A stretch of 39,893 nt of DNA, taken from positions 1 through 39,893 of the forward strand of contig JAAWEC010000100.1 of the NCBI GenBank assembly GCA_022794095.1, written 5' to 3'. Positions within the stretch are counted from its first letter, which is position 1; every line of letters starts with the position of its first letter. The position numbers and the translations under genes were made by a program. Shown in pieces: positions 3,000 to 26,954 of the stretch. The notes below the pieces were generated by a model. The model was not told where the DNA came from and made no database searches. It was given only the letters and a program-made list of their open reading frames with translations. This DNA is from Clostridia bacterium. Lineage in GTDB: Bacteria; Bacillota; Clostridia; TANB77; CAG-508.

Positions 3000-3156
3000 G
3001 TAAAAACTTAATTAATTGGATATTTTTTTCGAAATTTCTTTTGTTAGTTTCCAGATTATAATTTTTCTAACAATAAAAAAAATAATGATAAATAATAAAA
3101 CTTTTTTAATCATGAACAAATTATACTCTATATTTTCTCATTTGTCAACAAAAACT

Positions 3157-3684
3157 TTACGACATAATTCTACAAATTCCTACACTCACAAGCATTCCAA
3201 CAATATCTGCTGCTAAGCAAGCTATCAAAACAAATCTTGTTTTTTTTATTTTTACACAACTAGTATAGATAGCTATAGTATATAGTGTTGTTTCTGTTGA
3301 GCCCATAATTGTAGATGCTATCATACCAATAGTTGTATCTACTCCATATGTTTTCATTATGTCTGTTGCTACTGCAATAGAGCCACTTCCAGAGATTGGT
3401 CTTAGCATTGCAAGTGGCATAATTTCACTTGGAAAATGAATTACATTTAAAAATGGCATCACAAAACTAATTATTATGTCTAAAATCCCTGAACTTCTTA
3501 ATGCTCCAATTGCTACAAATAAGCCAATTAAAGTAGGGAGAATACTTATAACTATTGACATTCCTTCTTTTGCACCATCTAAAAAGTCATCAAAAACTTT
3601 GTTTTTTTCAATCAACCCATATATAACAATAATTAATATTACAAGTGGCATAGCTAAATTAGATACAAAACTAAAAATTTGCAT
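3157..3684 (-). CDS. spmB: spore maturation protein B-like membrane protein (nucleoside-transporter/FeoB-C fold family)
   Basis: 175-aa polytopic membrane ORF immediately downstream of the spmA-like gene, as in the Bacillus/Clostridium spmAB pair. Confidence 0.7.
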   Translation of the reverse strand: MQIFSFVSNLAMPLVILIIVIYGLIEKNKVFDDFLDGAKEGMSIVISILPTLIGLFVAIGALRSSGILDIIISFVMPFLNVIHFPSEIMPLAMLRPISGSGSIAVATDIMKTYGVDTTIGMIASTIMGSTETTLYTIAIYTSCVKIKKTRFVLIACLAADIVGMLVSVGICRIMS

Positions 3685-3733
3685 TTTTCATGCTCCTTTC
3701 TGCAATAATATATTTGAGTTGATTATATTTATT

Positions 3734-4325
3734 TTAAAAATTTTTAAACTTTACTTTTTTTATCAATATTTTTGCTACAAAAATTCCTGCTACAGCTGCA
3801 CATATTGTGGCAATCCAAACAGGAAAAACAATTGCTGTTGGATTTTCAGAACCTAGCGAATTTCTAATGGCAATTACAGTTGTTGGAATTATTTGAATAG
3901 AAGCCGTATTTAATACTATAAACATTAACATTGAATTACTTAAAACTTCTTTTTTAGTATTTTCCTTTTGCATTGATTTCATTGCTTTTAATCCAAGTGG
4001 AGTTGCTGCATTTCCTAATCCTAAAATATTTGCAATCATATTCATAGAAATTTCTTTTTGAATTTGTTTATTTTTTTTCATTTCTGGAAACAATATCTTT
4101 ATAATAGGAAGTAAAAAAAATGTTAATTTATCTATTATTTTTGTTTTGCTTGCAACTTGCATCATGCCATTCCATAAGCAAATAGTTCCGTAATAAATTA
4201 ATTGATAAGCTAATAGCATCATTTGTGCTTTGAAAAATTGAAGAATTTAGTTTTTCTAAATTCCCTGAAAAAATCGCGTATGAAAACGAAATGATAATAA
4301 ATACTGGCCATATTTTATTTAACAT
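3734..4325 (-). CDS. spmA: spore maturation protein A-like membrane protein; needs a +1 shift at CGG-A (4190..4187)
   Basis: ORFs 4128..4343 and 3734..4222 overlap and join as ...AISLSINLL-G-TICLWNGMMQVASK. AAGGTGA RBS then ATG 4325. LGLGNAATPLGLKAM motif in the C half. Confidence 0.75.
4187..4190 (-). other. recoding site: in-frame CGG followed by A; the +1 frame GGA continues SpmA
   Basis: Minus strand: aat tta tta C GGA act att tgc tta tgg aat ggc atg atg. CGG is in frame with ORF 4128..4343, GGA with ORF 3734..4222. Confidence 0.75.
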
Positions 4326-4448
4326 ATATATCACCTTAAACAATTTTATTCAAAATTAAATTTTTTATTACAATATAATTGACCTACATTTTTATTTGTG
4401 ATATATTATATATGGATTGTCTAAATAACTTTTAAGGAGGAGATTGAT

Positions 4449-4707
4449 ATGAAATCAACTGGAATTATAAGAAGAGTGGACGAGCTTCGGAAGAGTAGTT
4501 ATACCAATAGAAATCAGAAATCAATTCAATATTCTTGAAAAAGACCCTATTGAAATATATGTACAGGGTTCATCAATTGTGCTAAAAAAATTTGAACCAA
4601 ACTGTATCTTCTGTGGTAATAATGAAGATTTGTTATCTTATAATGACAAATTAATATGTCCTGATTGCGCTAAAAAAATCGGCAAACTTGAACTAAAAGA
4701 AAATTAA
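4449..4707 (+). CDS. abrB: AbrB/SpoVT-family transition-state regulator-like protein; needs a +1 shift at CGG-A 4488-4491
   Basis: Missing from the ORF track because the shift splits it. GGAGGAG RBS then ATG 4449. Read with the shift: MKSTGIIRRVDEL-G-RVVIPIEIRNQFNILEKDPIEIYVQGSSIVLKKFEPNCIFCGNNEDLLSYNDKLICPDCAKKIGKLELKEN. The span is 259 nt, which is 86 codons plus one extra base. Confidence 0.8.
4488..4491 (+). other. recoding site: in-frame CGG followed by A; the +1 frame GGA gives the conserved Gly of the AbrB DELGRVVIP motif
   Basis: gac gag ctt C GGA aga gta gtt ata cca ata gaa atc aga. Confidence 0.8.
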
Positions 4708-4737
4708 TTATATTTTCTTTTTAAAATTTGTATTTCT

Positions 4738-4770
4738 AAAAAGGCATAAAAATAATTATGCCTTTTTTTG
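4738..4770. terminator. bidirectional intrinsic terminator between abrB-like (+) and rsmI (-)
   Basis: AAAAAGGCATAAaaatAATTATGCCTTTTTTT: 8-bp GC-containing stem flanked by an A-run and a T-run. Confidence 0.75.
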
Positions 4771-4789
4771 ATTTTATATTAAATACATT

Positions 4790-5605
4790 CTACACAAATT
4801 TTTGATAAATTTCGTTTTTATTTAATCCTCTATCTTTAGCTATTTTTTTTATAATTTCTTTTTTCTGTAGTCCTTGATTTTCATATAGTTTATAATGTTC
4901 TTCTAAAGTTAAATTTTCAAAATTATTTTTTTCTTCAATTTTATTATTTTTTTCTATAATTAAAACCATCTCACCTTTTAAATTTTCTGATACTTTTATT
5001 ATTTCTTCTATATTTCCTCTAATAAATTCTTCATGAATTTTAGTAAGTTCTCTTGCCAAAACAACTTGTCTATTTTCTAATATTTCTTTTAAATCTTTTA
5101 ATGTTGATAGCAACTTATGTGGTGCTTCATATAAAATGATTGTTTTCTTACTTGCCTTTATCTCTTCTAATTTTTCTTTTCTTGTTTTTTTATTCAGTGG
5201 CAAAAAACCTAAAAATACAAATTCCTTTGTATCAATACCAGAAGCAATTAATGCATTTATCATTGCACAAGCTCCAGGAATTGGAATAACCTCTATTTGT
5301 TCTTCAATACATTTTTTTATAATTGCTTCACCTGGATCACAAATTCCTGGTGTTCCAGCATCTGAAACCAATGCAATATCTAGCCCCTCTTTTAACTTTT
5401 CTATTAAAATATTAGTTTTTTCATCTTCATTATGCCTATGATTGCTAATTAACGGTTTACTTATTTCAAAGTGATTTAATAATTTTAATGTATGCCTTGT
5501 GTCTTCTGCTGCAATTAAATCAACATTTTTTAGCACATTAATTGCTCTTAATGTAATATCTTCTAAATTTCCAATTGGTGTTGCCACAATATATAATTTC
5601 CCCAT
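4790..5605 (-). CDS. rsmI: 16S rRNA (cytidine1402-2'-O)-methyltransferase RsmI
   Basis: 271 aa starting MGKLYIVATPIGNLEDITLRAINVL...IAAEDTRHT, the typical RsmI tetrapyrrole-methylase-fold N-terminus. Confidence 0.9.
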   Translation of the reverse strand: MGKLYIVATPIGNLEDITLRAINVLKNVDLIAAEDTRHTLKLLNHFEISKPLISNHRHNEDEKTNILIEKLKEGLDIALVSDAGTPGICDPGEAIIKKCIEEQIEVIPIPGACAMINALIASGIDTKEFVFLGFLPLNKKTRKEKLEEIKASKKTIILYEAPHKLLSTLKDLKEILENRQVVLARELTKIHEEFIRGNIEEIIKVSENLKGEMVLIIEKNNKIEEKNNFENLTLEEHYKLYENQGLQKKEIIKKIAKDRGLNKNEIYQKFV

Positions 5606-5648
5606 TTTATTCTCCTTTATATAATAATACTTTAAGAAATAATACTAA

Positions 5649-6395
5649 CTATTTAATAATATTATAAATTTCTTTAATTTCTTTTGTATATTTTCCATTT
5701 TCATTATAAATATATAAATTATTTTGTACCTTTAAAAAAGGATTTGCATTTTTTATACCTTTTATTAAAATCAATTTTGGCTCACTTTTTTTATTTGAAT
5801 AAACAAAACGTATTACCTTAGGTTCTATTTTATATTTCCTCATAACACTTAGTATATCTACTAATCTATCTGGTCTATGTACCATATAAAATTCACCTTT
5901 ATCTTTTAATAAATCCTTTGATACCTTGATAAAGTCGTCTAATGTAGCTGTTGTTTCATGTCTGGAAATTATTTTCTTTTCTTCTTCATTTTTTATTCCA
6001 GTTCCTTTTTTCTTATATGGTGGATTTGTAACAATTGCATCAAAAGTATTTTTTTCTAATTTTTTATTTATATTTAAAATGTCCTCATTTATTATTTTGA
6101 ATTTATTTTCTAAATTATTTAATTTAATACTTTTTTTTGCCATTTCATAAACTTCTTTTTGAACTTCTATTCCTATTATCTCTTTTAATTTTGTTTTTCC
6201 ACATAATAAAGTCGCAATTATTCCTGTTCCTGTTCCTAAATCTAAAACCTTGGAATTTTCTTTTATGTCTTTTGCAAAATTTGATAATAATACACTATCA
6301 ATTCCAAAACAAAATCCTTTTTTGTTTTGAATTATTTTTAAATCTTTAAATTGTAAATTTTCTATTTTTTCATTTTCACTTAATTTAATTTCCAT
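5649..6395 (-). CDS. class I SAM methyltransferase, tRNA1(Val) adenine37-N6-methyltransferase-like (YabB/TrmN6 type)
   Basis: 248 aa with LKIIQNKKGFCFGIDSVLLSNFA, SAM motif LDLGTGTGI and catalytic VTNPPY. Confidence 0.75.
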   Translation of the reverse strand: MEIKLSENEKIENLQFKDLKIIQNKKGFCFGIDSVLLSNFAKDIKENSKVLDLGTGTGIIATLLCGKTKLKEIIGIEVQKEVYEMAKKSIKLNNLENKFKIINEDILNINKKLEKNTFDAIVTNPPYKKKGTGIKNEEEKKIISRHETTATLDDFIKVSKDLLKDKGEFYMVHRPDRLVDILSVMRKYKIEPKVIRFVYSNKKSEPKLILIKGIKNANPFLKVQNNLYIYNENGKYTKEIKEIYNIIK

Positions 6396-6832
6396 TTCCT
6401 TTTCCTTTTATTTAAAATTTTTGAAAAATTAAAATTTATTTTTAATTTTTTTATTTTATTTTTAATTTTATATTTTATTTTCTTTTTTTATTTTTACTTT
6501 TTTATTTTTTTATAAATTTAAAAATTTTTTCTCTTAACTTTTGTAAAAACTTTTGAGAAAAATGACCTTTCTCATTTTTACTTTTTTCAAGCTCAAAACA
6601 TGAATATTTTTATTTCTCAAACTTTATTTTTGTTTTATGTTTATTTATACAATTGATAATATATATGCTTTCTTTCTCTTTTGCCCCATAGCATTTATCT
6701 TTGTTAATATGTTTGAATTCAATTTTATTTTACCTTAATATTATAAAATTTGTAAACCTTTCTTTATTTCCTTCATATTATACTACAAAACACATATTTT
6801 TGCAAAATTTAAAAAATAGGAGACTAAAAAAA

Positions 6833-7015
6833 ATGGATAGAATTTTTCTTAACGAAAATAATAGAGGAGAAGAAAAAACTTCTCCAAAAAAATCTTTTGA
6901 TTTTAAATTATATAAAAAAAACACATTAAATTCTATTAATGATGTTGAAAAATTTTTAAATAATTTTCATCATTACTTTAAATACTTTAAATTATATAAA
7001 ATAATAAAAAAATAA
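6833..7015 (+). CDS. hypothetical small basic protein (60 aa)
   Basis: TAGGAGAC RBS about 10 nt before ATG 6833. It is the only plausible ORF in a 1-kb AT-rich spacer. Low-complexity sequence with no recognisable family. Confidence 0.25.
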   Translation: MDRIFLNENNRGEEKTSPKKSFDFKLYKKNTLNSINDVEKFLNNFHHYFKYFKLYKIIKK

Positions 7016-7420
7016 TTAAAATATTAAAAATTTTTACAAAACGTAGATACATCTTGCTTCTAAAAATTTTTTTACTTTTTACACAATTATTTTATAAGAA
7101 TATAAAATAAATTATAAAAAATAAATATTTTTTTAATTATTTTTTCATTTTTTATTTTTATATTTTATTTTTTTACACTTCTTAAAAATTTTTCCTAATA
7201 AAAATTTTTATATTTTTTGCTTTTTTTCATATACTTTTCTTATTATTTTAAGCTGTTTTTTGTATTTATGTATACCGTTTTTTGCTTTTTATAATATCGA
7301 CATTTTCCTTTATTCCCATGCTTTTCGCTCATTTATTCTCTTCTAAAATGCATTACTTTTTCTAAGGTTTCTCCTTATCTTTTTCTTCTTGTTTTTTGGT
7401 GTACATAACCCCGTTTTTTT

Positions 7421-7963
7421 CTATTTATTTTGTCTTGTGTAAATTTCCTTAAACTCTTCACTTTCATTTCCATCAATCAAAAACTTAACCTTATTTACTT
7501 CATTTAATTCTGTTAAAGTATTAACAATACAATTTATAATATTCATTTTTTCCTTTTCATCATCTTTAGAATAATTCAAAAACTCATTTGAAAAATCCAA
7601 AACAATGCAATCATTTTCTAAATAATTTTTATTTAGTTTAGTATTATCTGGCATCACTTTTTTATTTTTCTCATTCTTAGGACCTTCAATCAACAAATTA
7701 ATCAATTTATCATAAGGATTATTTATAATTTCCTTAATGTCAATAAGCCTTGCTTCTGGATTTATCTCATTTGTGTCTTTAGATGGAAAATACAAACTAA
7801 CAATTGTCTGTCTTACTTGTTCATCTGCAATTTCCTCTTGAGGAACATATTCCTCTACAATTGTTTCTTCCTTATTCTTTACATACTTAATTGCAAAATA
7901 GCCTCCCAACAAAATAACAACTAACAAAACGAAAAAAATTATACCTATCTTTTTTCCTTTCAT
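7421..7963 (-). CDS. GerM-like (GerMN domain) sporulation/germination lipoprotein-like protein
   Basis: N-terminal TM/signal (KKIGIIFFVLLVVILLGG), then a domain with SLYFP...NPYDKLINLLIEGP...VLDFS...IVNTLTEL..VKFLIDG, typical of GerMN. The internal ATG 7963 is preferred over the ORF start at 8023. Confidence 0.55.
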   Translation of the reverse strand: MKGKKIGIIFFVLLVVILLGGYFAIKYVKNKEETIVEEYVPQEEIADEQVRQTIVSLYFPSKDTNEINPEARLIDIKEIINNPYDKLINLLIEGPKNEKNKKVMPDNTKLNKNYLENDCIVLDFSNEFLNYSKDDEKEKMNIINCIVNTLTELNEVNKVKFLIDGNESEEFKEIYTRQNK

Positions 7964-8076
7964 AATCACTTCATTCCTTTCTAACTTACACAAAGTTGAT
8001 AATAAAAAATTAAATCTAACCATATCTCATTGTGTTTTTATATTTACTAACATCATATTACTTGTTTGTCCATTTT

Positions 8077-8207
8077 AGAACAAAAGGAGCATGATTAAAA
8101 ATTTTTGACCTTTCAGATTACTTTATATGCTCCGTCTTTGTTCATCTGCCAAATTTACTTTAGCAAATTTGTGTAGAATGTGTTTCTGTTATAGGAAAAT
8201 CGCATTT
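8077..8207 (+). repeat. structured intergenic repeat element, copy A (two hairpins; candidate ncRNA or IS200/IS605-type PATE-like element)
   Basis: Stem 1 is 8077-8094 / 8127-8143 (AGAACAAAAGGAGCATGA ... ATGCTCCGTCTTTGTTC). Stem 2 is 8150-8171 (CAAATTT actttagc AAATTTG). The tail TGTAGAATG..TTATAGGAAAATC follows. Homologous to 14611-14754. Confidence 0.6.
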
Positions 8208-8452
8208 GGGTCATTCAGTGCCTGTCCCAATTATGCCCAAATGGGTCACTCGGTGCCTGTCCCAGATATGCCCAAATGGGTTACTCGGTGCCTGTCCCAA
8301 TTATGCCCAAATGGGATACTCGGTGCCTGTCCCAGATATTCCCAAAAGGGATACTCGGTGCCTGTCCCAGATATGCCCAAATGGGTCACTCAGTGCCTGT
8401 CCCAGATATGCCCAAATGGGATACTCTGTACCTGTCCCAATTATGCCCAAAT
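8208..8452 (+). repeat. tandem array of 7 x 35 bp with no spacers (GGGTCACTCGGTGCCTGTCCCAGATATGCCCAAAT consensus)
   Basis: Units start at 8208, 8243, 8278, 8313, 8348, 8383 and 8418. Two subtypes: CCCAATTATGCCC in units 1, 3 and 7; CCCAGATATGCCC in units 2, 5 and 6, with unit 4 a variant (CCCAGATATTCCC). Unit 2 has 20 of 35 G+C, far above the surrounding sequence. Confidence 0.95.
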
Positions 8453-8475
8453 GATAACATTCCCATTTTGTCCCA

Positions 8476-8504
8476 TTGACAAATTGCCTTTTTCCGTATA
8501 AAAT
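8476..8504 (+). promoter_or_regulatory. sigma-A promoter of the activase-fusion gene
   Basis: TTGACA (8476-8481), 17-nt spacer, TAAAAT (8499-8504). It lies 24 bp downstream of the last 35-bp repeat. AAAGGAAG RBS before ATG 8527. Confidence 0.55.
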
Positions 8505-8526
8505 TAGGCTGAAAGGAAGTTTTTTT

Positions 8527-11500
8527 ATGAGTGATATTAGTGATATTAAAGGTGATTTTAATATAGATTTTGATTCAAATGATAATGCTGTTTTTAATGA
8601 TGTTTTACATGTTGGGCTTGATGTTGGTTCTACTACTGTTAAGATTATTGTTATGGATGGCTATAGGAATACTGTATATAAGGATTATAGGAGACATTTT
8701 TCGGATACGAAGAATACTGTTTGTGAGGTTTTGGAGGATTTGCTAAAGAGGTTTCCTTTGTGTTCGTTTACTTTGGCTCTTACGGGTTCAGGGGCTATGT
8801 CTGCTGCTAAGTTTTTGGGCGTTAGTTTTATTCAAGAGGTGGTTTCTTGTAAACGTGCAGTGGAGAGGTATATTCCGAAGACTGATGTTGTTATTGAGCT
8901 TGGAGGTGAGGATGCTAAGATTATTTATTTTGACCAGTCTATTGAGCAACGTATGAATGGGACTTGTGCTGGTGGTACTGGTGCATTTTTGGATCAGATG
9001 GCTTCTTTGCTTCATACGGATACTGCTGGTTTGAATGAATTGGCTAAGGGTTTTTCTACTATTTATCCTATTGCTTCTCGTTGTGGGGTTTTTGCTAAAA
9101 CTGATATTCAACCTTTGATTAATGAGGGGGCTGCTAGGGAAGATATTGCTGCTTCTATTTTTCAGGCTGTTGTTAATCAAACTATTAGTGGTTTGGCTTG
9201 TGGTAGACCTATTCGTGGGAATGTTGCTTTTTTGGGAGGTCCTCTTAATTATTTGTCTGAACTTAGGACAAGGTTTATTGAGACTCTTAATTTAAAAGAT
9301 GATGAAATCATTGTTCCTGATGAGGCTCATCTTTTGGTTGCAAAAGGCGCTGCTTTGGATTCTTTTAATTCTGATGAAATTACTACTAATGAATTGGAAG
9401 CCAAAATTGTTAATTTGAAAAATTCACATGATAATACTACACATCCTTTAGAACCTTTATTTAAAAATGAGAATGAGTATCAAGATTTCAAAAATCGACA
9501 TAATAATGCAAAGGTTGAAAAGGCTCAATTAGACGGTTATGAGGGTGATTGCTATCTTGGTATTGATGCTGGTTCTACTACTACTAAATTGGTTTTGATT
9601 GATAAAGATGGAAAACTTTTATATTCTCTTTATGGTAACAATGAAGGAAATCCTTTACAAAGTGTTATGAATATGTTAAAGGATTTATATAAAGTTTTGC
9701 CTGAAAAAGCAGTTTTAAGATACAGTGGTGTCACAGGATATGGTGAAAAGCTAATTCAAACTGCTTTAAATGTTGATTTAAATGAAATTGAAACTATTGC
9801 ACATTATACTGCTGCCAAAACTTTTGAGCCTAATGTTACAGCAATTGTAGATATTGGTGGTCAAGATATGAAGTATATTCGCATGAAAAATGGCTCAATT
9901 GATAACATAATGTTAAATGAAGCTTGTTCTTCTGGTTGTGGTTCTTTTATTGAAACATTTGCAAAAAGCTTAAACCTAGAGATTTCACAATTTGTTGAAG
10001 AAGCTATCAAGTCTAAAAGACCTGTTGACTTAGGTTCAAGATGTACTGTTTTTATGAACTCTAAAATTAAACAAGCACAAAAAGAAGGGTATTTGGTTGG
10101 AGACATTTCAAGTGGACTTTCTTATTCAGTTATTAAAAATGCAATTCAAAAAGTTATGAAGGTAAGAGATGTTGAAACTCTTGGTAAACATATTGTTGTT
10201 CAAGGTGGAACTTTTTATAATGATGCAGTTTTACGTGCTTTTGAATTGATTGTTGGCAAAAATGTTGTACGACCTGATATTTCTGGTCTTATGGGTGCAT
10301 ATGGTATGGCACTTTTATCAAAAGAACAATATGAAGCTAATTTGGATATGGAATACAAGTCTACTATTTTAAAGGAAAATGAGATAGATAATTTAAAGAT
10401 AAACATAACACATGCTCGTTGTAATAATTGTGAAAATCATTGTAAATTAACTATTAACAAGTTCAGCAATGGACAAATTCATGTATCTGGAAATCGTTGT
10501 GAAAAAGGTAGTGGCATGGTTACTAAAACACAAGAATTGCCAAACCTTATCCAATACAAACAAGATAGAATTTTTAATTATAAACCATTAGAGGAGCATT
10601 CTGCACCAAGAGGAATTATAGGTATTCCAAGAGTTTTAAATATGTATGAAGATTATCCATTTTGGTTCACTTTTCTAACATCTTTAGGTTTTCGTGTTAT
10701 TCTTTCTGAGAAAAGTACACGTAAAACATATGAAAAAGGAATGGAATCAATGCCATCTGAATCTGTTTGCTACCCAGCAAAACTTTCTCATGGTCATATC
10801 GAAAGCTTAATAGAACAAGGAATTACAACAATATTTTATCCTTGTATACCATATTCAAGAAAAGAATACGAAAAAGCAGATAATCACTATAACTGCCCTA
10901 TTGTAATTTCTTATTCTGAAGTACTTAAAAATAATGTTGAAGGACTAAAAAATGATAACATAAAGTTTATAAATCCATTTTTGCCATTTGAAAAGAAGAA
11001 CTTAGTTAAGAAAATAATGGAATTAAAAGAATTTGAAGAATATCATTTTACAAAAGCAGAACTCTTAAAAGCTGCTGAAAAAGCTGAATATGAATATCAA
11101 AAATGCAAAAAAGATATTAGAGATAAAGGGGCCAAAACTGTACGTTATTTAGAGGAAAATAATTTAAAAGGTATTGTTTTAGCAGGTAGACCATATCATG
11201 TTGACCCAGAAATAAATCACGGAATTGATACTTTAATTACATCTTTGGGGCTTAGTGTTTTAACAGAAGATAGCATTTGCGATAAAACAGAGGCAAAAAG
11301 ACCTATCCGTGTTGTAGACCAATGGGTATATCACGCAAGATTGTATGCAGCAGCAGATTTTGTTGGTAAACATGATTGTTTAGAACTTGTTCAATTAAAT
11401 TCTTTTGGCTGTGGTGTAGATGCTGTTACAACAGATCAAGTTGAAGAAATTTTAACAAGTTTTGGTAAGATGTATACTTTAATTAAGATAGATGAAGTTA

Positions 11501-12921
11501 ATAATTTAGGAGCTGTACGTATTCGTATTCGTTCACTTTTAGCTAGTATGAAGAAACGTGAGCAAGAAAAGTTTACAGAAAACCAAAATGGTGATTATGG
11601 CATTAAGAAAAAGATTTTTACTAAAGAAATGAAGAAAGATTACACAATTCTAATTCCACAAATGGCACCTATTCATTTTGAATTATTAGAAGCTGCTGTT
11701 CGTTCTTCTGGATATAATGTAGAATTGCTACGTGAATGTACTCAAAATACTGTCGAAACTGGTCTAAAATATGTAAACAATGATGCTTGTTACCCATCAA
11801 TCTTGGTTACTGGGCAAATGATTGAAGCTTTACAGTCTGGCAAATATGACTTAAATAAAACTGCTTTAATTATGTCACAAACTGGTGGTGGTTGTAGAGC
11901 TACAAATTACATTGGTTTTATACGTAAAGCTTTAAAAGATGCCGGTTTTGAGAATGTGCCTGTTATTTCTTTTAATATTGTTGGTATGGAAAAAATGCCT
12001 GGATTTAAGCTTACTGTTCCTTTAATGGAAAAGTTGCTTAAAATGTTGGTTTATGCAGATTTATTACAAAAAATGCTTACAAAGAATAGAGCTTATGAAG
12101 TACATAAAGGTGAAACACAAAAACTTTTTGATACTTGGCTAGAAAAATGTAAACTATTATTAGAAAAGTCTAATAATAAGGAGTTTAAACAAAGTATTTA
12201 TGACATTGTAAATGATTTTGAAAAAATCGAATTAGATACATCAATTGAAAAACCTCGTGTTGGTATTGTTGGTGAAGTTTTGATTAAGTATCATCCATTT
12301 GGTAATAACTATGTTGCAGACCTTTTAGAAAAAGAGGGGGCTGAGGTTATTTTACCTGATTTTATGGGATTTGCTAAATTTATGTGTACACACAAAATTA
12401 CTTTTAATAGTTTACTTAATACTAATAAAACTTCTTCTAAGATTATGAAAGCTGCAATTAAGTTGATTGATATTCTTGAAAAAGATGTTAAGATTGCTCT
12501 TTCTAATTCTAAAAAGGGTTATTTGCCACCTTGTGATATTTGGCATTTGGAAGAAAAGGTTAAAGATGTGTTGTCTATTGGGAATCAAACTGGTGAGGGT
12601 TGGTTTTTGACAGCTGAGATGATTGAGTATATTGAAAATGATATTCCAAATATTGTTTGTGTTCAACCTTTTGCTTGTTTGCCTAATCATGTTGTTGGTA
12701 AGGGTGTTATTAAGACTATTCGAGAGAAGTTCCCTGAGGCAAATATCTCTCCTGTTGATTATGACCCAGGTGCTAGTGAGGCTAATCAGACTAATAGGAT
12801 TAAACTTCTTATGACTGTTGCAAAAGATAATTTGCAGGCTAAACAAAATAGGAAAAGGGCTTTGGAGAATGAGGGCTTGGAGGAAAGTTTGGAGAAAAAA
12901 GAAGAAGAAAGCATTTCATAA
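8527..12921 (+). CDS. acyl-CoA dehydratase activase-related fusion protein (two BcrAD/BadFG-type ATPase modules plus Cys-rich linker plus two HgdB/DUF2229-like dehydratase-component modules)
   Basis: Two actin-fold ATPase starts (GLDVGSTTVKIIVMD and GIDAGSTTTKLVLID), a Cys cluster HARCNNCENHCK...GNRCEKG, then a long C-terminal region (CYPAKLSHGH, NSFGCGVD, NNDACYPS, TGGGCRATNY, VQPFACLPNHV). Start taken at the RBS-supported ATG 8527. Confidence 0.8.
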   Translation: MSDISDIKGDFNIDFDSNDNAVFNDVLHVGLDVGSTTVKIIVMDGYRNTVYKDYRRHFSDTKNTVCEVLEDLLKRFPLCSFTLALTGSGAMSAAKFLGVSFIQEVVSCKRAVERYIPKTDVVIELGGEDAKIIYFDQSIEQRMNGTCAGGTGAFLDQMASLLHTDTAGLNELAKGFSTIYPIASRCGVFAKTDIQPLINEGAAREDIAASIFQAVVNQTISGLACGRPIRGNVAFLGGPLNYLSELRTRFIETLNLKDDEIIVPDEAHLLVAKGAALDSFNSDEITTNELEAKIVNLKNSHDNTTHPLEPLFKNENEYQDFKNRHNNAKVEKAQLDGYEGDCYLGIDAGSTTTKLVLIDKDGKLLYSLYGNNEGNPLQSVMNMLKDLYKVLPEKAVLRYSGVTGYGEKLIQTALNVDLNEIETIAHYTAAKTFEPNVTAIVDIGGQDMKYIRMKNGSIDNIMLNEACSSGCGSFIETFAKSLNLEISQFVEEAIKSKRPVDLGSRCTVFMNSKIKQAQKEGYLVGDISSGLSYSVIKNAIQKVMKVRDVETLGKHIVVQGGTFYNDAVLRAFELIVGKNVVRPDISGLMGAYGMALLSKEQYEANLDMEYKSTILKENEIDNLKINITHARCNNCENHCKLTINKFSNGQIHVSGNRCEKGSGMVTKTQELPNLIQYKQDRIFNYKPLEEHSAPRGIIGIPRVLNMYEDYPFWFTFLTSLGFRVILSEKSTRKTYEKGMESMPSESVCYPAKLSHGHIESLIEQGITTIFYPCIPYSRKEYEKADNHYNCPIVISYSEVLKNNVEGLKNDNIKFINPFLPFEKKNLVKKIMELKEFEEYHFTKAELLKAAEKAEYEYQKCKKDIRDKGAKTVRYLEENNLKGIVLAGRPYHVDPEINHGIDTLITSLGLSVLTEDSICDKTEAKRPIRVVDQWVYHARLYAAADFVGKHDCLELVQLNSFGCGVDAVTTDQVEEILTSFGKMYTLIKIDEVNNLGAVRIRIRSLLASMKKREQEKFTENQNGDYGIKKKIFTKEMKKDYTILIPQMAPIHFELLEAAVRSSGYNVELLRECTQNTVETGLKYVNNDACYPSILVTGQMIEALQSGKYDLNKTALIMSQTGGGCRATNYIGFIRKALKDAGFENVPVISFNIVGMEKMPGFKLTVPLMEKLLKMLVYADLLQKMLTKNRAYEVHKGETQKLFDTWLEKCKLLLEKSNNKEFKQSIYDIVNDFEKIELDTSIEKPRVGIVGEVLIKYHPFGNNYVADLLEKEGAEVILPDFMGFAKFMCTHKITFNSLLNTNKTSSKIMKAAIKLIDILEKDVKIALSNSKKGYLPPCDIWHLEEKVKDVLSIGNQTGEGWFLTAEMIEYIENDIPNIVCVQPFACLPNHVVGKGVIKTIREKFPEANISPVDYDPGASEANQTNRIKLLMTVAKDNLQAKQNRKRALENEGLEESLEKKEEESIS

Positions 12922-12926
12922 TATAA

Positions 12927-12956
12927 AAGGCTAGGTTCTAAAACCTAGTCTTTTAC
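12927..12956 (+). terminator. intrinsic terminator of the activase-fusion gene
   Basis: AAGGCTAGGTTctaaAACCTAGTCTTTT directly after the stop at 12921. Confidence 0.75.
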
Positions 12957-13000
12957 TTTTATTTCTCTAATTTGATTTTCTAAATCTTTTAATTCTGTAT

Positions 13001-13853
13001 TTAAAATTTATCTTTCAAATACTTTTTCATTTGCTCATACCCCAACTGATACAATTCGTCAATCTTTTTCATATCTAATAATCCAACCTTTTCACTTTTT
13101 ATTTTTAAGACTTCATCTGCCCCTTCCATCTCATAATTTGACAATTCTTTACATAAAAGTCCAATTGAACGACCTGCCACTTCCACTAGATTTCTATCGC
13201 AATTTAAGTCCACTTCATCATCAAACATTATACTAAGAACATTTTTAGCACCTAGTTCTTTTAATTCTTTCCATGGCACATTTTCTCGAATTCCACCATC
13301 AATTAATTTAGTTTTTTTATAAGGACATGGAGAAAAAACAACTGGATAACTACAACTTGCTCTTACAGCTTTTCCAATTTCAATATCATTTACAAATATT
13401 GTTTTATTTGAAATTTCTCTAAATTCACATGATGTAAAGCAATAAACAGTACCGTTACATAAATCGACACTTGGAATTGCTAATGGCATTTTAATGTCTG
13501 ATATTGTTATAATATTTTTTGTTTTTGCTATTTTGTCTATTAATTTTTCAATTTGTTTTCCACTATTCAATCCCTCTATTACAATTCGTCCTGTAAAAAT
13601 AAGCCCAATTATTAATTTAAAAATATTCAAAATGTCAACATATTTTATTTTTTTACAGTATTTTTTGAATATTTTATACATCTCATCTGCATTAAATCCC
13701 ATTGCATAAAGACATGCTACTATGCTTCCGTGATGATGTTCCTCCTACATATTCAAATTTTATGTTACTCTCTTCCAGTGCTTTTATTGCACCAATGTGT
13801 GCAGCTCCTTTTACTCCTCCACCTGCTAAACATAAGCCTTTCTTTTCTTCCAT
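13001..13853 (-). CDS. patatin-like phospholipase; needs a +1 shift at CGG-A (13730..13727)
   Basis: GGAGGAG RBS then ATG 13853. [28 protein letters not shown] (oxyanion GGG), then [17 protein letters not shown] (the GxSxG nucleophile elbow) spans the shift. The DGG motif (LIDGGIREN) lies in ORF 13001..13702. Confidence 0.85.
13727..13730 (-). other. recoding site: in-frame CGG followed by A; the +1 GGA supplies the second Gly of the patatin GxSxG motif
   Basis: Minus strand: gga gga aca tca tca C GGA agc ata gta gca tgt ctt tat gca atg gga ttt. Confidence 0.8.
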
Positions 13854-13942
13854 AAACTCCTCCTAACATATATCACATTTTATGAATAAATATGTTGAAA
13901 CGTGCTTGGTTTTATGATATAGTATTTTTGAAAGGATTAAAA

Positions 13943-14599
13943 ATGGAAAAAAACTATTATGATATTTTACAAGTTAATAAAAATGCTTCTCCTGAAATTA
14001 TAGAAAAAGCTTATAAAGTTTTAGCAAAAAAATATCATCCAGATTTGCAAAAAGAAAAAGATAAAAAAGAAGCAGAAGAAATTTTAAAAGAAATTAATGA
14101 GGCATATGACGTTTTGTCAAATTCAGAGAAAAAGAATAATTATGATAATTTATTAAAAGAAAAAGAGGAATTAGAAAATAATCAAAAGTTTCAACAACAA
14201 AATAATTCAAATAATTCTAATGATTATCAAAATACATATACTTCAAATATTTCTAAAGATGAGCTTCTTCGTAGACAAGAGATTATACAAAAGCAACAGC
14301 AATATAATAAGCAGGTAGCAGAACAATTAAAACATGAACAGGAATTAGCTTATCAAGAACAACTACAATATGCTAGACAAAAGGCTTACCATGATGCTTA
14401 TATTCAAGATTTGAAAAATCGTGGTTATAAAATTCGCTATAAAAAGAGTTTTAAAGATTACATAAATGGATTTATTGCACTGGCAATTACTATACTAATT
14501 TTGTTTTTCATTTATCAGATTCCTTTTGTGAAAAGTTATTTTTGGAATTTATATAATGAGAATGAACTCGTACACTTCATTCGAAACATACTTAACTAA
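13943..14599 (+). CDS. J-domain (DnaJ-like) protein with Gln/Asn-rich linker and C-terminal TM segment
   Basis: NYYDILQVNKNASPEIIEKAYKVLAKKYHPDLQ (HPD motif) and C-terminal FIALAITILILFFIYQIPF. ATG 13943 preferred over 13892. Confidence 0.75.
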   Translation: MEKNYYDILQVNKNASPEIIEKAYKVLAKKYHPDLQKEKDKKEAEEILKEINEAYDVLSNSEKKNNYDNLLKEKEELENNQKFQQQNNSNNSNDYQNTYTSNISKDELLRRQEIIQKQQQYNKQVAEQLKHEQELAYQEQLQYARQKAYHDAYIQDLKNRGYKIRYKKSFKDYINGFIALAITILILFFIYQIPFVKSYFWNLYNENELVHFIRNILN

Positions 14600-14610
14600 A
14601 TCAATCAAAA

Positions 14611-14754
14611 AGAACAAAAGAGGCATGATTAAGATTTTATGACCTTTTAGATAACTTTTCATGCCTCGTCTTTGTTCTCCCTCGAAAATTGCAAAACAAT
14701 TTTCTGTGGAACGCTTGATATTATAGGAAGTTCAAAGAACTTTCCTATATTATC
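14611..14754 (+). repeat. structured intergenic repeat element, copy B (three hairpins)
   Basis: Stem 1 is 14611-14628 / 14659-14678. Stem 2 is 14684-14704 (GAAAATTG caaaa CAATTTTC). Stem 3 is the palindromic unit at 14716-14754 (GATATTATAGGAAGTTC aaa GAACTTTCCTATATTATC). Collinear with copy A, with compensatory stem changes. Confidence 0.65.
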
Positions 14755-14804
14755 AAAATGATGTATTTTTCTCCAGTCCTAAAATACCTCAAACACAATT
14801 GCCA

Positions 14805-14845
14805 AAAATAGGATTTTGGAGCTATTCCAAAATCCTATTTTTTTC
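14805..14845. terminator. strong bidirectional intrinsic terminator between the J-domain gene/element B (+) and the T4SS-like operon (-)
   Basis: AAAATAGGATTTTGGA gctat TCCAAAATCCTATTTT: stem of about 15 bp, A-run upstream and TTTTT downstream. Confidence 0.8.
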
Positions 14846-14877
14846 GACAATAATCCTGACACAAACGAGACCTGTCC

Positions 14878-16176
14878 CTACTGTGTCACATCAAATGACA
14901 TTACAAATTCGTAATTTTCTTTTAGTTGCATTATTAGAGTTATTTGTTTTTCATTTTTGTCTTCTCCTGTTATGTCACTTAAAGAAATGTCTAAAGTGTA
15001 TGTTCCTCTTTCTTCTGTAAAATCACTGTATTGTGATTTATAATGTAAAGGATAATTTTCTCTCATATAGTTTTCAAATTGCTCAACTGTTCCAAATTTG
15101 TTGTTTCTAAAGTTTTGGTCTAATACATTATATGCTGCTGTGTAATCTCTATTGTTTAACATTTGTATCCATTTGTCAGCATTCATTATTACTTTGTTTT
15201 GATCTTTTGATTTGTCATATTCTTGTTTGAATTTTTCTGTTATTATTGTATATGTATCTAATTTTACTGTGTAGTCTAGTATTTTGTTTTCTTTAAATAT
15301 GTAATAATTTTGGTATTGGTCTAAGCAAATGTATTCTATGTAATCTTCATACATATTTGATTGGTATTTGTTAAAAGCATATTTTTTTATGTCATCTTTA
15401 TTTTTTTCTATATATTGTTTGAAGTTTTCTAAGTTTCCAAATCTTGCTTCTTTATATTCTTTGTCTAAATATTGATATGCAACTTCTGGTAACGACAAAC
15501 ATAATCGTTTGAAGTCTACATAGTATTTATTAGATATATTTTCTAAGTTTACTTGTACTGATTTTATTTTGTTGTATTGTTTTTCTTCTATTTTTTCTAT
15601 TTGTTGTATATTGTTTTCTAAGTTTTCATATTTTTCTTTGCTTGGTTCTATTGCAAACAACATTGTAGATGGTTCTATGTAAACAATATATCTTTCAACA
15701 GATGTTTTTTCATAATTTAGGTTTTCAACAATTCCTTCTGCAATAAATATGCTTATGTCTTCTCTTTTTATCCTTTTAATATGTATTGGTATAAAAACCA
15801 TTTTTTCTTCATATTTTTTTATTTTTTCTTCTATATTTTTTGTTGTTATATTATTGTTTTTTATATAATTGTCACTTAATAGTTCATATAAAATTTCATT
15901 TTCTTCTATTACTTTTCCACTACTTCCATAATATGATGAGTTGTTTTTGTTTGCATAATCTATATATGCTTGGATTGCATTAGTTACATAATTGAATTCA
16001 TATCTTTCTAATTCTATACTTTGTTGATATTCTATTCCTTCTTTGTCTTGTGGTGTGAATAACATTTTTTGCTCTTCTTTGTTTTTTACTTTTAGCATAA
16101 TAATAGCAATAATTATTGCTATTATTATTACAAGACTAAATATGATTAAATATTTTAATTTTTTTGTTTCTTTCAT
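14878..16176 (-). CDS. hypothetical N-terminally membrane-anchored protein (last gene of the T4SS-like operon)
   Basis: 432 aa with one N-terminal TM (LIIFSLVIIIAIIIAIIML) and a Lys/Glu/Tyr/Asn-rich extracytoplasmic part. AGGAGG-like RBS (AAAGGAGGTCACAT) before the ATG. No family recognised. Confidence 0.6.
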   Translation of the reverse strand: MKETKKLKYLIIFSLVIIIAIIIAIIMLKVKNKEEQKMLFTPQDKEGIEYQQSIELERYEFNYVTNAIQAYIDYANKNNSSYYGSSGKVIEENEILYELLSDNYIKNNNITTKNIEEKIKKYEEKMVFIPIHIKRIKREDISIFIAEGIVENLNYEKTSVERYIVYIEPSTMLFAIEPSKEKYENLENNIQQIEKIEEKQYNKIKSVQVNLENISNKYYVDFKRLCLSLPEVAYQYLDKEYKEARFGNLENFKQYIEKNKDDIKKYAFNKYQSNMYEDYIEYICLDQYQNYYIFKENKILDYTVKLDTYTIITEKFKQEYDKSKDQNKVIMNADKWIQMLNNRDYTAAYNVLDQNFRNNKFGTVEQFENYMRENYPLHYKSQYSDFTEERGTYTLDISLSDITGEDKNEKQITLIMQLKENYEFVMSFDVTQ

Positions 16177-16194
16177 ATGTGACCTCCTTTTAAA

Positions 16195-19100
16195 TTACGG
16201 TCTTCTAAATACTTGTATTCCTGGCCAATTTGCATAATAATTCCAATTACCACTTGGCTCAATTGTGTGATTTTGTTGTGCACAAGCTTCATCATAAACA
16301 CCATTTCCCCCTGCGTAAATCATTACGTGATATCCATAAGCATTTACAACATCTCCTGGTTGTGCTTCAGACGGGTCTACTTGTACCCATCCAGCAGCTG
16401 GTAACATATCTGGGAAACCTCCTGCTCCTGTAAAGTGATAATTATATGCATTTATTTGGTCCTCTGTTAAAGCTCCTGCTCTATATAAAACTACTGCAAC
16501 ATATGTAGCACATACATATTGTGTATCTGATTCAGATGTCTTTTTTATGTCCCCCCATGTTTGTGGACCATATGTGTTACCTTTGTCTATCATTTCTTGT
16601 AATACTGCTCTTGCTGTTTGTATAATATCATCTGAACTTCCTCCACCTTTAAATGATGATAATTCTCTGTCTTTAAACATATCATAATATTTTCTAGCAG
16701 CAGCTGTTCTTTCTTCCATTCTTGGAATTCCTGGTTTTTCGAATATCCAACAAAATGCAACTGCTGCATCTTCTGGTGTAGAAGCATTTTCCCAATCATT
16801 TAATGAATATCCTCCATAGCTTGTTAATGCATAAGTTGCAAATCCATCTGCTCCTCCTCCTGGTGTCATTTCACCTATTAAAAATTGAATTTGGATATTT
16901 TCATCAGTCCATTCTTTTCCTTTAGATGCTGCATATTGTTCTAATGCTGTTCTTCTTTCAAAAGACCATTGACATAAACCTATTCCTATTCCTGTTCCAC
17001 CTTCTATAATTCCTGCATTAAATCCTGATTCTGCTTCAATGTTTCCTAATACTCCTGCTGCTGCTTCTTTGCTATATCCTGCATTTATAACTGCTACCCA
17101 AACTTTTTCTTGTATTGTTCCTCCATAAATTCCTCCTAGTGCACCAGCAAATCCTTTTATATCATATTCTGAAAATTTGTATTCATACACACCATATCCT
17201 ATTCCTGTTGCTTTCCATATTAGGTATTTTGTTAAATCAACCATATTTGCTGTTCTTTCATTTTTTTCTAAAATATCAAATAAATAATAATCTCTAACAT
17301 ATACATATGCTTTTGTTTCTTGATAAATTTTAACAAATTTGTTTGAATTTTCCTCTACTTTACCTTTACCATCTTCATATTTTATGTTTAGCCTTCTTGT
17401 AGTTGTCGCAGTTTGTTGATATGTTGTATAATTTTCTCTGATTTTATTACCTTTTTCATCTATATCTGTTATTACTCCACTATCTACAATATTTTCACCT
17501 ATAGATGTACTTTCTGTTTCATCTACTTTTCCTTTTATGTTAATAATTTTTTCTGTTTCTCCTTGTTGCCATCCTAATTCTTCATCACTGTATGTATTAT
17601 TTTCTTTTGCATATTTAACACACCATGCATCTGCATATGTAATTTCTATTTTGGTTGTACAATTTTCTGTTGTTTGTGTTGTTGTTCCTTTTTGACTCCA
17701 ACCACTAGATGCTCCATTTTCCATATCTGTTTTTTGTGATGTTGTTGTTGTATTTTGTGTTGTTGTAACATTGTCTTGGATTGCTACTATAATTTCTGTA
17801 TCCATTACTGCTTCTGCTAGTTTTTCTGAGAAATTTCTTTCATTAGTATTTATGTAAAGATATAATAGGTATTCATATGGCATTGTGTAATTTTTTAATG
17901 CTGTTTTTAAATCTATTTTAGATGTATTTTCTTTTATTTGAGTTTGTCCACCTGCTCCTGAATTCCATGTTGCAATTATAATCTTTCCCTCTTCATCTAT
18001 TGTATATTTTTTTAATGCTTCTGCATTACCACTGTTAATTAACTCTTCAAATTCTTCTTTTGATACATATTTCAAATTCATTATTTTAGATTCGATTAAT
18101 GTTTGTGTTTTATTGTCATCAACATTAGTTGCTGTATATCCTGAATGGTCTGCTTTTAAATATTCTAAAATACCATTTACAATTCCTTGTGCACATTTGT
18201 CTGTACCATCTCCTCGAAGCATTGTTGAATCTGGCTCTCCATCAAGAAAACCACCTTCTGTTACAACAGATGGAAAACCTGATGTAGCAGCATTTTCAAT
18301 TATACCCAAATTTCCAATTGCTGTTCTTTCTACATCTGAACCTGCTCCTTTGTTAGGTAATCCCATTGAACTTGCCATTCCATCTGATAAAAACTCAGCA
18401 AGTTGTTGTGATATTCCATCCCCTGCTTTATAAATTGCTTGTACACCACTACCTCCTCCTGCATCATAATGTATTTGTATACATAAGTCTGGATTTGCAT
18501 CTTTTGCAAGTCTTGTTCTATCTCCAACAGTTATTCCTGATGGATTAGCTGATGTACTTCCTACTTGAACTACTTTAATGTTTTTATATTTTTTTAATAG
18601 TTGCTCAACTTTTTCTGCTGTTCTTATGGTAAGTTCTTCTTCTTTTAGTGTTCCATCTGGACTTCTTGCTCCTGTATCATCTGAATTATTGTGTCCTGCT
18701 GCAATTGCTATTACATATTCTTCATCTTTATCTTTTCCTGCATATTCTGCTTTGTCATCATCTGCTCTTGATGTAATAGTTCTTTCTTTTCTTGTTTTTG
18801 AAACTTTTGTGTCATCCTCTTTTTCTTTTTTCTCAGTTGTTCCAGTTGCTTTTACATTTTCTGCCCTAACGAATTTCTTTTCTTCTTTATGTTCAATTTC
18901 TACATAAATAACTACTTCTTTTGTTAGTGGATTTGTTGCTTTTTTATATGTTCCTGTGTAAGTGACAGATGTCCCTTGTTCAATTGTTTCATATTCATTT
19001 AGTAACTCATTTCCATTTTCTGATACTTTATGTTTTTTATCCCATTTTCCTGTATCTTTATCTGGGTTCAATTTCGATTCTGCTTGTTCATAAACTGTTG

Positions 19101-19707: not shown

Positions 19708-19716
19708 ATCTTAATC

Positions 19717-20646: not shown

Positions 20647-20665
20647 CTTTTATTTCCTTTCTATT

Positions 20666-23285: not shown

Positions 23286-23300
23286 TTTCTCCTCCTTGTT

Positions 23301-26791: not shown

Positions 26792-26837
26792 ACTCCATTC
26801 CTCCTTTTTGTCTATTTTCCCTTATATATAATTATAA

Positions 26838-26871: not shown

Positions 26872-26954
26872 AAAAAGATAATTTTAATTGTTTTGTAATA
26901 TGTTTGTAAAAAAAAAGAAACAATTCTTTAAAAAAATTGCTTCTTTTTCGTTTT

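Follow-up and report, generated by a model that had tools for sequence, protein, structure and literature searches.

A contig of 39,893 nucleotides from a Clostridia bacterium (GenBank assembly GCA_022794095.1, JAAWEC010000100.1), referred to below in its full length as the window, carries a structured intergenic element at two places, here called copies A and B. What kind of element is it? An earlier note, made from the letters of the window alone, took its covarying stems as the signature of a functional RNA or single-stranded DNA structure and offered two candidates, an unannotated family of small regulatory RNAs (sRNAs) or a non-autonomous, PATE-like relative of the IS200/IS605 insertion sequences. 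The follow-up analysis places both copies in a large, previously undescribed family of ~142-base repeats of uncultured gut Clostridia. Most likely, copies A and B are not an sRNA gene but selfish elements comparable to REP and BOX sequences. The family as a whole is probably a non-autonomous REP/BIME/BOX-like repeat whose copies have been inserted, with no duplication of the target, at the feet of A-tract-hairpin-T-tract structures.

The two copies and the anatomy of the unit

Two collinear copies do lie at the noted sites, and they align from AGAACAAAAG for ~125 nt (coordinates of all modules are given in Table 1). Stem 1 agrees with its first description, GGAGC/GCTCC in copy A standing against GAGGC/GCCTC in copy B with the GTC bulge retained. 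Stem 2 forms a hairpin of different sequence in each copy, as was also said, but it is not perfect in both, as copy A contains one A.C mismatch (CAAATTTAC/GCAAATTTG). The difference in stem 2 is not a change private to this pair; it reflects two pre-existing module types, M-alpha and M-beta, which recur family-wide. Folding of the plus strand gave -37 kcal/mol for copy A (z -3.9) and -43.3 kcal/mol for copy B (z -6.4). A third, tail hairpin (T) is whole in copy B and represented by its 5' arm only in copy A, so that copy B has the composition H1-Malpha-Talpha and copy A that of H1-Mbeta plus half of Tbeta. Beyond position 8201, the sequence of copy A passes into a tandem array of seven 35-bp units, and the same truncation of the tail is present at an orthologous locus (L034, 5904-6047).

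The boundaries of copy B were visible in metagenomic assemblies. In four DNA metagenome runs, contig depth rose from ~5-15 to 130-730 between ~14610 and 14753, loose contig ends clustered at 14607-14613 and 14746-14753, and depth was back at the single-copy level in the bin starting at 14758. The jump in depth and the loose ends independently confirm the limits of the unit. Outside the sharp boundaries of the unit, A and B have no alignable flanking sequence, which rules out that the pair is part of a longer duplication and upholds the earlier description of a hairpin-based repeated element. A separate observation concerns run X27, an RNA-labelled library, in which one contig joins 14339 to 14857 via 25 other letters, so that the DnaJ-domain gene has lost its 3' end and neither copy B nor the terminator is present; the contig probably comes from a related strain with a different arrangement of the locus.

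The unit measures ~142 nt and consists of head, middle and tail hairpins in the fixed order H-M-T, each module occurring in at least two sequence types with complementary arms. In the head, a G+C-rich stem of 9 bp with a 30-nt loop stands between an A-tract and a T-tract, an arrangement that matches a bidirectional terminator except for the oversized loop. Head type H1 reads AGAACAAAAG, stem NGGCATGA, the 30-nt loop, TCATGCCN, the GTC bulge and then CTTTGTTCG, while H2 has the stem GTGGGCTGA/TCAGCCCAC and a loop quite unlike that of H1. The middle module is CGCGAAAATTGC..GCAATTTTCTGTG (M-alpha) or TGCCAAATTTGC..GCAAATTTGTGTAG (M-beta), and the tail is ATTATAGGAAGTTC..GAACTTTCCTATAAT (T-alpha) or GTTATAGGAAAATC..GATTTTTCCTATAAC (T-beta), with a bulged T at the same position in both tail types. 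Units are single at 93 loci and form head-to-tail pairs at 12 and triplets at three. Truncated units and lone H, M and T modules are also present, and in two cases (L033 and L061) an H2-Mbeta-Tbeta unit is nested in reverse between the H1 and M modules of another.

A large repeat family of gut Clostridia

A 36-nt loop pattern allowing up to three mismatches matched the window at A and B only, with no match expected from shuffled sequence. Nevertheless, the idea of a two-copy oddity did not survive, for the window itself also holds a divergent full-length copy, a lone T module, a T-like palindrome and a remnant. The search for further copies proposed at the outset likewise uncovered a large multi-locus family. 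An exact search with the loop pattern, using one genome per species, gave 83 loci in 18 species-level metagenome-assembled genomes (MAGs) labelled uncultured Clostridium or Clostridia, which were obtained mostly from mice and in one case from a Hadza human sample, plus one match in Bacteroidetes. The latter (L012, 5329-5354, on a 1.2-Mb contig) has no surrounding similarity and no covariance-model match, and was set aside as chance.

A covariance model built from 46 aligned units and run over 636 kb of fetched loci returned 168 matches at E < 0.001. Of the best 132 of these, 82 fall within 267 kb of a single MAG, CAOKGO01 ('uncultured Clostridium sp.'), which accordingly holds at least 82 copies; it is the nearest available genome to the window, with 89-99% identity over positions 3001-14749. 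The window DNA itself is present in mouse gut metagenomes. Depth over the head reached 285-730 against ~5-15 in the flanks in the four DNA metagenome runs, and this ratio suggests ~40-75 head copies per genome equivalent. A full-text literature search with diagnostic strings of the element found no paper, and viral contigs gave no match to it. In the plasmid and phage collections the only matches were to a conserved gene of Fusobacterium ('near' mode) and chance stretches of 20-40 nt ('distant' mode); the element is not a plasmid or phage sequence.

Pairing constraint on the stems

Covariation was measured on a MAFFT alignment of the 46 units that had not been fitted to any structure. Standard pairs were formed by 97.3% of cells against 91.9% in shuffles, and 84 cells had changed on both sides against 24.9. 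The covariation score of 0.168 compares with 0.072 in shuffles, of which 0 of 500 reached it, and with at most 0.061 for structures slid along the alignment. The arms of the head are matched by type: AGGCATGA/TCATGCCT in 33 copies and TGGCATGA/TCATGCCA in 30, with cross-type combinations in only five. The GGAGC, GGGGC, H2 and 38.8-kb variants of the head are self-complementary too. The stems are therefore under real pairing constraint, and the covariation first seen between A and B persists across the 46 aligned units of the covariance-model check. It should, however, be noted that copies of one subfamily share descent, so that these figures represent perhaps a dozen independent covariation events, not hundreds.

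The constraint does not discriminate between RNA and DNA as the folded molecule. In the lower stem of M, 60 G.U pairs stand against two A.C pairs on the plus strand, whereas the H and T stems have no G.U excess and are Watson-Crick paired on both strands. Further, pair flips (A-U to U-A, G-C to C-G) make up many of the compensations. Template switching in DNA palindromes can also produce such flips by mutation, and covarying stems alone therefore do not show a functional RNA. In this respect, the pairing constraint read from A and B was sound and the step from it to a functional RNA was too strong. The ~30-nt loop is indeed conserved between A and B, but in copies that the model retrieved and the loop pattern missed, loops are no more alike in sequence than stems, so that the conservation of the loop across the family is partly a matter of ascertainment.

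Location, junctions and a model of spread

The family is intergenic, with only one of 107 arrays lying within an open reading frame (ORF). Six arrays are located between divergent, 18 between convergent and 49 between co-directional genes. In the last group, 37 are antisense and 12 sense to the genes (p = 5e-4), and a gene 3' end faces the T side in 55 of 73 arrays. Of 99 arrays, 76 have a negative GC skew on the strand of the element, and in 90 skew and gene strand are concordant. The gene order from parB to rpmH places the window at the edge of the chromosomal replication origin, so that the fork is expected to cross it from right to left; copies A and B both fit the strand pattern, with the minus strand on the lagging-strand template.

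The sequence that follows the T end is not random. After ...CCTATAATA the consensus is T(0.88) A(0.82) A(0.96) A/C A A A A (G), and a unique stem-loop with a T-run lies directly past the T end in 22 of 64 cases; the same detector called such a structure at 4 of 81 head sides and at 95 of 2000 random places (Fisher 5e-6). By eye the share at the T end is about half, as the detector misses long loops. Folding of the 60-nt flank on the tail side gave a median energy of -9.95 kcal/mol, whereas the head side gave -4.8 and other intergenic DNA -5.0. This tail-side structure is a bidirectional intrinsic terminator, and its A-tract is the flanking A-run. The junctions between units have the same form: tandem units meet at ...TATAATA/GAACAAAAG-hairpin, and the nested units of L033 and L061 at ...TATAACA/GAACAAAGAC-GAGGCATGA, the latter corresponding to the host head when its other strand is read, and no base is duplicated there (the first slash in each marks the junction). 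One rule thus fits host-terminator, tandem and nested junctions: directly 3' of the tail end comes an A-rich 9-mer and then a hairpin.

Array length varies between strains. In CAOKGO01 the locus orthologous to copy B carries an array that has at least three units and reaches the contig end, compared with one unit in the window and in two other assemblies. At another locus, three units in CAOKGO01 correspond to a single decayed unit in CATLUC01, and window positions 4680-4800 hold only a remnant where CAOKGO01 has two full units.

These observations are consistent with the following model. A new copy would enter, with no duplication of its target, at the 5' edge of an 'A-rich 9-mer + hairpin' as read on the plus strand of the element; on the other strand, this point would lie directly after the hairpin and T-tract of an intrinsic terminator. 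The head of the element is itself such a structure, which would make a resident copy a preferred target, and this mimicry would account for the head-to-tail arrays and the occasional nesting. Propagation would need intact hairpins, recognised as folded single-stranded DNA or as a cruciform by a trans-acting enzyme, so that only variants with compensated stems would multiply and leave the covariation seen today. Copies beyond terminators would be little transcribed and harmless and would persist, which would explain the orientation bias. An effect on the ends of host transcripts is possible, as a side effect and not as the reason for the existence of the family.

Several points weigh against this model. 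A terminator-like structure is found at only a third to a half of T ends, copy B lies ~50 nt from its terminator, and adjacency to terminators could reflect the survival of copies instead of their insertion. The claim that no base is duplicated derives from one nested structure at two loci, possibly one event that was copied. Arrays could also come from unequal recombination between the first 9 nt of the head and the similar 3' flank. Because skew and gene strand agree so closely, transcription and replication are inseparable as the source of the orientation bias. The data are mostly short-read MAGs, in which repeats break or collapse assemblies, and a clean pair of filled and empty sites with exact junctions was not recovered, two candidate loci being too diverged or rearranged. 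Among contigs that encode exactly the flanking proteins, all carry the same alleles or break at the repeat, while comparison of the window with L034 and L083 and a flank-pair BLAST across loci gave only diverged or rearranged sites. Finally, no mobilising enzyme was found in the ~640 kb around copies that were searched, which is also the scope of the gene searches below.

Further from the data would be the proposal that the family represents a new class of non-autonomous mobile DNA, structure-targeted to the feet of terminator hairpins, with a head that renews the target by mimicry and moved by an enzyme new to such repeats. We regard this as unlikely. Candidate movers would be a single-copy host HUH nuclease or recombinase and, least likely, a reverse transcriptase acting on an A-tailed transcript.

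Alternative explanations

Among the alternatives, a PATE-type derivative of IS200/IS605 fares best, although it too is rather unlikely. A Y1 HUH transposase (TnpA) whose gene lies elsewhere in the genome would recognise the hairpins as the left and right ends of the element, and excision and insertion would involve single-stranded DNA of the lagging-strand template, a new copy being placed 3' of a short T-rich sequence. Several observations agree with this part of the earlier proposal. The element lacks terminal inverted repeats (its 5' end AGAACAAAAG and 3' end CCTATAATA(T) are not reverse complements), and the 5' and 3' flanks are not identical within copies, as judged from ~85 arrays clear of locus ends out of 108, with few exact junctions; the nested case shows no target duplication either. 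The conserved sequence beside one end resembles the other end (CTTTTTTTA in the flank and CTTTTGTTC at the end, on the minus strand). The strand biases relative to genes and to GC skew, as well as the lagging-strand placement of both window copies near the origin (rpmH-rnpA-yidC), point the same way. What speaks against a PATE is chiefly its ends. In IS608-type elements the left and right ends resemble each other, whereas here the head stem GAGGCATGA with its 30-nt loop is unrelated in sequence and shape to the tail stem TATAGGAAGTTC with a loop of 3-4 nt. Further, a search by tblastn with the IS608 and IS200 TnpA proteins over the ~640 kb around the copies reached a best E value of only 0.2, although this was a weak test, and neither tnpA nor tnpB with ends like those of the element came to light there. 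Clustering of 566 ORFs gave no recurrent ORF near the copies, and by Pfam the ORFs bracketed by H and T modules are all housekeeping genes (penicillin-binding protein (PBP), SMC, EF-Ts, peptidases).

Slightly less credible is that the host has selected the element as a cis-acting RNA in neighbouring mRNAs, where it would be a 3'-end stabiliser, a back-up terminator or an insulator and would have spread because it is useful. On the minus strand the head reads as a stem followed by UUUUGUUCU, and as a back-up terminator it would be expected to produce 3' ends at ...CCUCUUUUGUUCU. The prevalent orientation suits this explanation, since read-through from a gene whose 3' end faces the T side would cross T', M' and H' and end in a hairpin plus CUUUUGUUCU. 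BIME, BOX and SPRITE elements have been reported to affect co-transcribed genes (PMC3049150; PMC10969869). RNA-library contigs, which are unstranded, contain the element at a depth above that of the flanking genes; however, such an excess is expected from copy number alone, DNA carry-over is possible, and the contigs give no information on transcript strand or ends. A canonical terminator stands between gene and element in about half of the cases, which would leave most copies poorly transcribed. The head itself combines a stem and a T-tract with a 30-nt loop and so falls outside the terminator- or SPRITE-like form with a loop of 3-8 nt, and a terminator scan of two consecutive units called no terminator-like site. 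Truncated, nested and arrayed copies are better explained by selfish spread.

It is improbable that the family is an immobile, minisatellite-like sequence, spread and resized by recombination, slippage and segmental duplication only. The strain-dependent length of the head-to-tail arrays would be accounted for, and the 9-nt likeness between the start of the head and the 3' flank could support unequal crossing-over. However, the element occupies more than 100 separate loci with unrelated flanks on both sides, its boundaries are sharp and constant, and neither the nested insertion in reverse orientation nor the consistent polarity relative to terminators would be expected of such a sequence.

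The other candidate of the earlier note, a multi-copy family of independently transcribed sRNAs, has become very improbable. A stable, covarying three-hairpin fold, the restriction of G.U pairs to the plus strand in the lower stem of M and the occurrence of the element in metatranscriptome assemblies are what such a family would show. Yet the copies number at least 80, with truncated, nested and tandem forms, and are mostly antisense to genes; their 5' flanks are unrelated, and the plus strand ends in an A-run, not a U-run, and has no terminator. A promoter scan within units gave one weak match against 1.9 expected by chance, and the H and T stems lack the G.U excess. An Rfam scan for a known functional RNA was equally unfavourable: at the gathering threshold the whole window contains two tRNAs only, and around A and B even E values up to 10 returned generic hairpins alone, with 11-21 bits against thresholds of 44-229. 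Two other signals were looked for in the unit. An outward promoter in the head loop on the minus strand (ATGAAA-17-TAAAAT, a 9/12 match) is no better than chance, and a five-codon mini-ORF (AAGAGG-C-ATG) was rejected because its start codon is 1 nt from the putative ribosome-binding site, too short a spacing.

The weakest proposal, a SINE-like retroelement whose A-run-ending plus-strand RNA is reverse-transcribed from a nick in a terminator T-tract (target-primed reverse transcription), would fit the merging of the 3' A-run into the A-tract of a T-rich target and the apparent 5' truncation of lone T and M-T copies, but is extremely improbable given that no reverse transcriptase, flanking duplication or promoter was evident, that 3'-truncated copies (H only, H-M) are at least equally common and that we know of no precedent in bacteria outside group II introns.

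Other features of the window

The window has a G+C content of 29%, and the genes around copies A and B are chromosomal housekeeping genes (Table 1).

Table 1. Positions of the repeat copies, genes and further repeats; coordinates refer to the window unless a fetched locus (L number) is given.
Feature	Position	Strand	Details
Copy A, head H1	8077-8143	+	A-tract AGAACAAAAG, stem GAGCAT..ATGCTC, ~30-nt loop, GTC bulge, T-tract CTTTGTTC
Copy A, middle M-beta	8144-8181	+	CCAAATTTAC-TTTA-GCAAATTTG, lower stem, linker
Copy A, tail T-beta, 5' arm only	8182-8201	+	GTTATAGGAAAATC; 3' arm missing
Copy A, whole (modules H1 to T-beta 5' arm)	8077-8201	+
Copy A, covariance-model match	8077-8221	+	102.6 bits
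Copy B, head H1	14611-14677	+	stem GAGGCATGA/TCATGCCTC
Copy B, middle M-alpha	14678-14714	+	CGAAAATTGC-AAA-ACAATTTTCTG, linker
Copy B, tail T-alpha, complete	14715-14753	+	ATTATAGGAAGTTC-AAA-GAACTTTCCTATAT, bulged T
Copy B, covariance-model match	14611-14753	+	162.9 bits
Divergent full-length family member	38791-38930	-	between rpmH and rnpA; found by covariance model; complementary head stem GGAAAGCC/GGCTTTC
Lone linker and T-alpha module	29491-29537	+	hairpin and T-run directly after
T-beta-like palindrome	31885-31925	-	adjoins terminator, between rsmG and parA
Remnant, linker and start of M-beta	4785-4801	-	just past a terminator
35-bp x 7 tandem array	8207-8453		unit GTGCCTGTCCCAGATATGCCCAAATGGGTCACTCG; stands where the rest of the tail of copy A would be
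35-bp repeat, other sites	L004 ~5760-5830; L017 6-111, 1029-1160; L027 5680-5750; L034 6046-6150; L047 1510-1580; L076 502-610
~33-nt motif	14867-14889 (degenerate); L004 495, 539; L017 3429; L024 7756, 7895; L039 1951; L044 6011, 6067; L066 723; L077 3971; L084 704; L085 5275, 5379, 5487, 7407, 7787
Germane-domain protein gene	7421-8023	-
BcrAD/DUF2229 activase gene	8476-12921	+	1481 aa
Patatin-like gene, split	13001-13860		53 + 233 aa; precedes DnaJ-domain gene
DnaJ-domain gene	13892-14599	+
Bidirectional intrinsic terminator	14804-14844		between DnaJ-domain gene and 432-aa gene, ~50 nt beyond copy B; read directly from the sequence
432-aa gene	14878-16176	-
Type IV secretion/conjugation cluster	14878-28785	-	adjoins two tRNA genes
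Two tRNA genes	29049-29290
parB, parA, rsmG, mnmG, mnmE, jag, yidC, rnpA, rpmH	30088-39893	-	gene order
rnpA	38374-38727	-
rpmH	38949-39083	-

At the terminator beyond copy B, the Rfam scan gave generic hairpin matches only. The neighbouring type IV secretion cluster includes a VirB4-like ATPase of the CD1110 family (23301-25262), several TrbC/VirB2-type pilins and PrgI, and it also encodes an 1170-aa protein with amidase and phage-tail-lysozyme domains (16195-19707). No integrase or relaxase was seen among the ORFs scanned. The cluster is flanked by copy B and the lone tail module in direct orientation. The two were considered as attachment sites of an integrative and conjugative element, and this was set aside because neither enzyme was seen and because the density of the family makes flanking by chance likely.

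Near the origin, the normally tight rpmH-rnpA pair is interrupted by the divergent copy, and a 20-bp repeat occurs three times beyond rpmH (39191-39252). Several conserved genes appear split. The murA gene is found in two ORFs in different frames (111-821 and 844-1383), mnmE has a match to its N-terminal half only (35716-36378), the division of the patatin-like gene recurs in the independent assemblies L001-L003, and a class A PBP gene is split in L081 (2732-5285). This suggests pseudogene formation or frameshifts in a repeat-rich genome; an alternative genetic code was ruled out, as mnmG and the 1481-aa activase read through under table 11. Very A+T-rich low-complexity tracts (TTTATTT-type, with periods of 7 to 32) at 6435-6513 and 7126-7175 occupy the 1-kb gap between a methyltransferase gene (5649-6395) and the Germane-domain gene. 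At L034 4190-4330, in a related MAG, two hairpin units are inserted at the edge of this tract.

Two further repeats accompany the family. The 35-bp unit (GGGYNAYTCRGTGCCTGTCCCAWWTATGCCCAAAW) represents another dispersed repeat family, distinct from the hairpin elements but often only a few hundred bp away from them. It is known from seven places in all, as arrays (2-7 units) in the window and at five fetched loci and, in L004, as an inverted pair. Outside the window, the six fetched loci have 2-4 units or the inverted pair, and the number of units differs between the window and L034. Chromosomal housekeeping neighbours and the dispersed nature of the repeat rule out plasmid iterons or a replication origin, which the 35-bp array had at first suggested. 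The third repeated motif, of ~33 nt (ATGAGACAAATNAGACCTGTCCCTNCTGTCTCA), forms the hairpin TGAGACA..TGTCTCA with a conserved loop. It stands directly upstream of a ribosome-binding site and start codon at several loci, and could be a regulatory site or an element of the 5' untranslated region. The string CCTGTCCC is common to this motif and the 35-bp repeat, with 48 occurrences in ~640 kb against ~1 expected from base composition.

Comparison with known systems

Transcript ends, genome rearrangement and the quality of assemblies are all shaped by small hairpin repeats, among them the REP, BOX and Correia elements. The present family explains contig breaks in the MAGs of this clade, where it should be masked or annotated lest its copies be taken for sRNA genes or riboswitches. 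It is also a worked example of covarying stems in a repeat being insufficient alone as a sign of functional RNA. To our knowledge, the mechanism by which repeats without terminal inverted repeats spread has not been established for most such families. The most useful new point is the single junction rule for terminators, arrays and nesting, which offers a concrete model of hairpin-foot targeting with a self-renewing target.

The element fails the defining features that were tested for miniature inverted-repeat transposable elements, REPs, attC sites and canonical terminators, and it is not a demonstrable member of any named family. Its head arms AGAACAAAAG and CTTTGTTCG(Y)C, for instance, fit neither RYYYAAC nor GTTRRRY of attC sites, and its units stand back to back without ORFs.

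IS200/IS605 elements and PATEs are like it in their hairpin ends, in lacking terminal inverted repeats and target duplication, in inserting by a short specific sequence and in an orientation that, for the element, may be tied to strand or replication. The dissimilar end hairpins and the failure to find matching tnpA or tnpB genes set it apart, and tandem arrays are atypical of that group.

Class C group II introns, as reportedly described by Robart, Seo and Zimmerly in 2007, insert directly after the hairpin and T-tract of intrinsic terminators by recognising a DNA stem-loop. The likeness would concern the choice of a safe target site and not ancestry, for the element has no GUGYG 5' end, no domain V and no intron-encoded protein, and measures only 142 nt.

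REP and BIME sequences are thought to be handled as folded single strands by the HUH enzyme RAYT (TnpA-REP). They share with the element many extragenic palindromic copies, mosaic clusters, compensatory changes in stems and the lack of terminal inverted repeats or target duplication. However, each REP is one palindrome of 20-40 nt, carries a conserved 5' tetranucleotide and is typically found in inverted doublets (REPINs), whereas the element has three different hairpins in a 142-nt unit repeated head to tail in direct orientation, and no RAYT gene was seen in the sampled DNA.

An interspersed repeat with a structure like that of an intrinsic terminator, enriched downstream of genes, has also been reported (PMC3049150). 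In the element only the head is terminator-like, with a 30-nt loop that the scan did not call, and the copies adjoin host terminators and do not replace them.

In architecture the element resembles the BOX elements (boxA-boxB(n)-boxC) of Streptococcus pneumoniae and S. suis, of which S. pneumoniae ATCC 700669 has 125, made of 422 modules (PMC3049150). Both families inhabit low-G+C Firmicutes in around a hundred intergenic copies, are highly base-paired, keep short, distinct modules in a fixed order and occur in clusters and as lone modules. Both also vary in length between strains through repeated modules, insert into one another and have no transposase of their own. In contrast to BOX, it is the whole H-M-T unit that is repeated head to tail and not an internal module, the ends of the element are not inverted repeats of each other, and it has a defined polarity relative to terminators. 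The element works like the REP/BIME, BOX and SPRITE repeats, with which it has modularity, location and dynamics in common (PMC3049150; PMC10969869).

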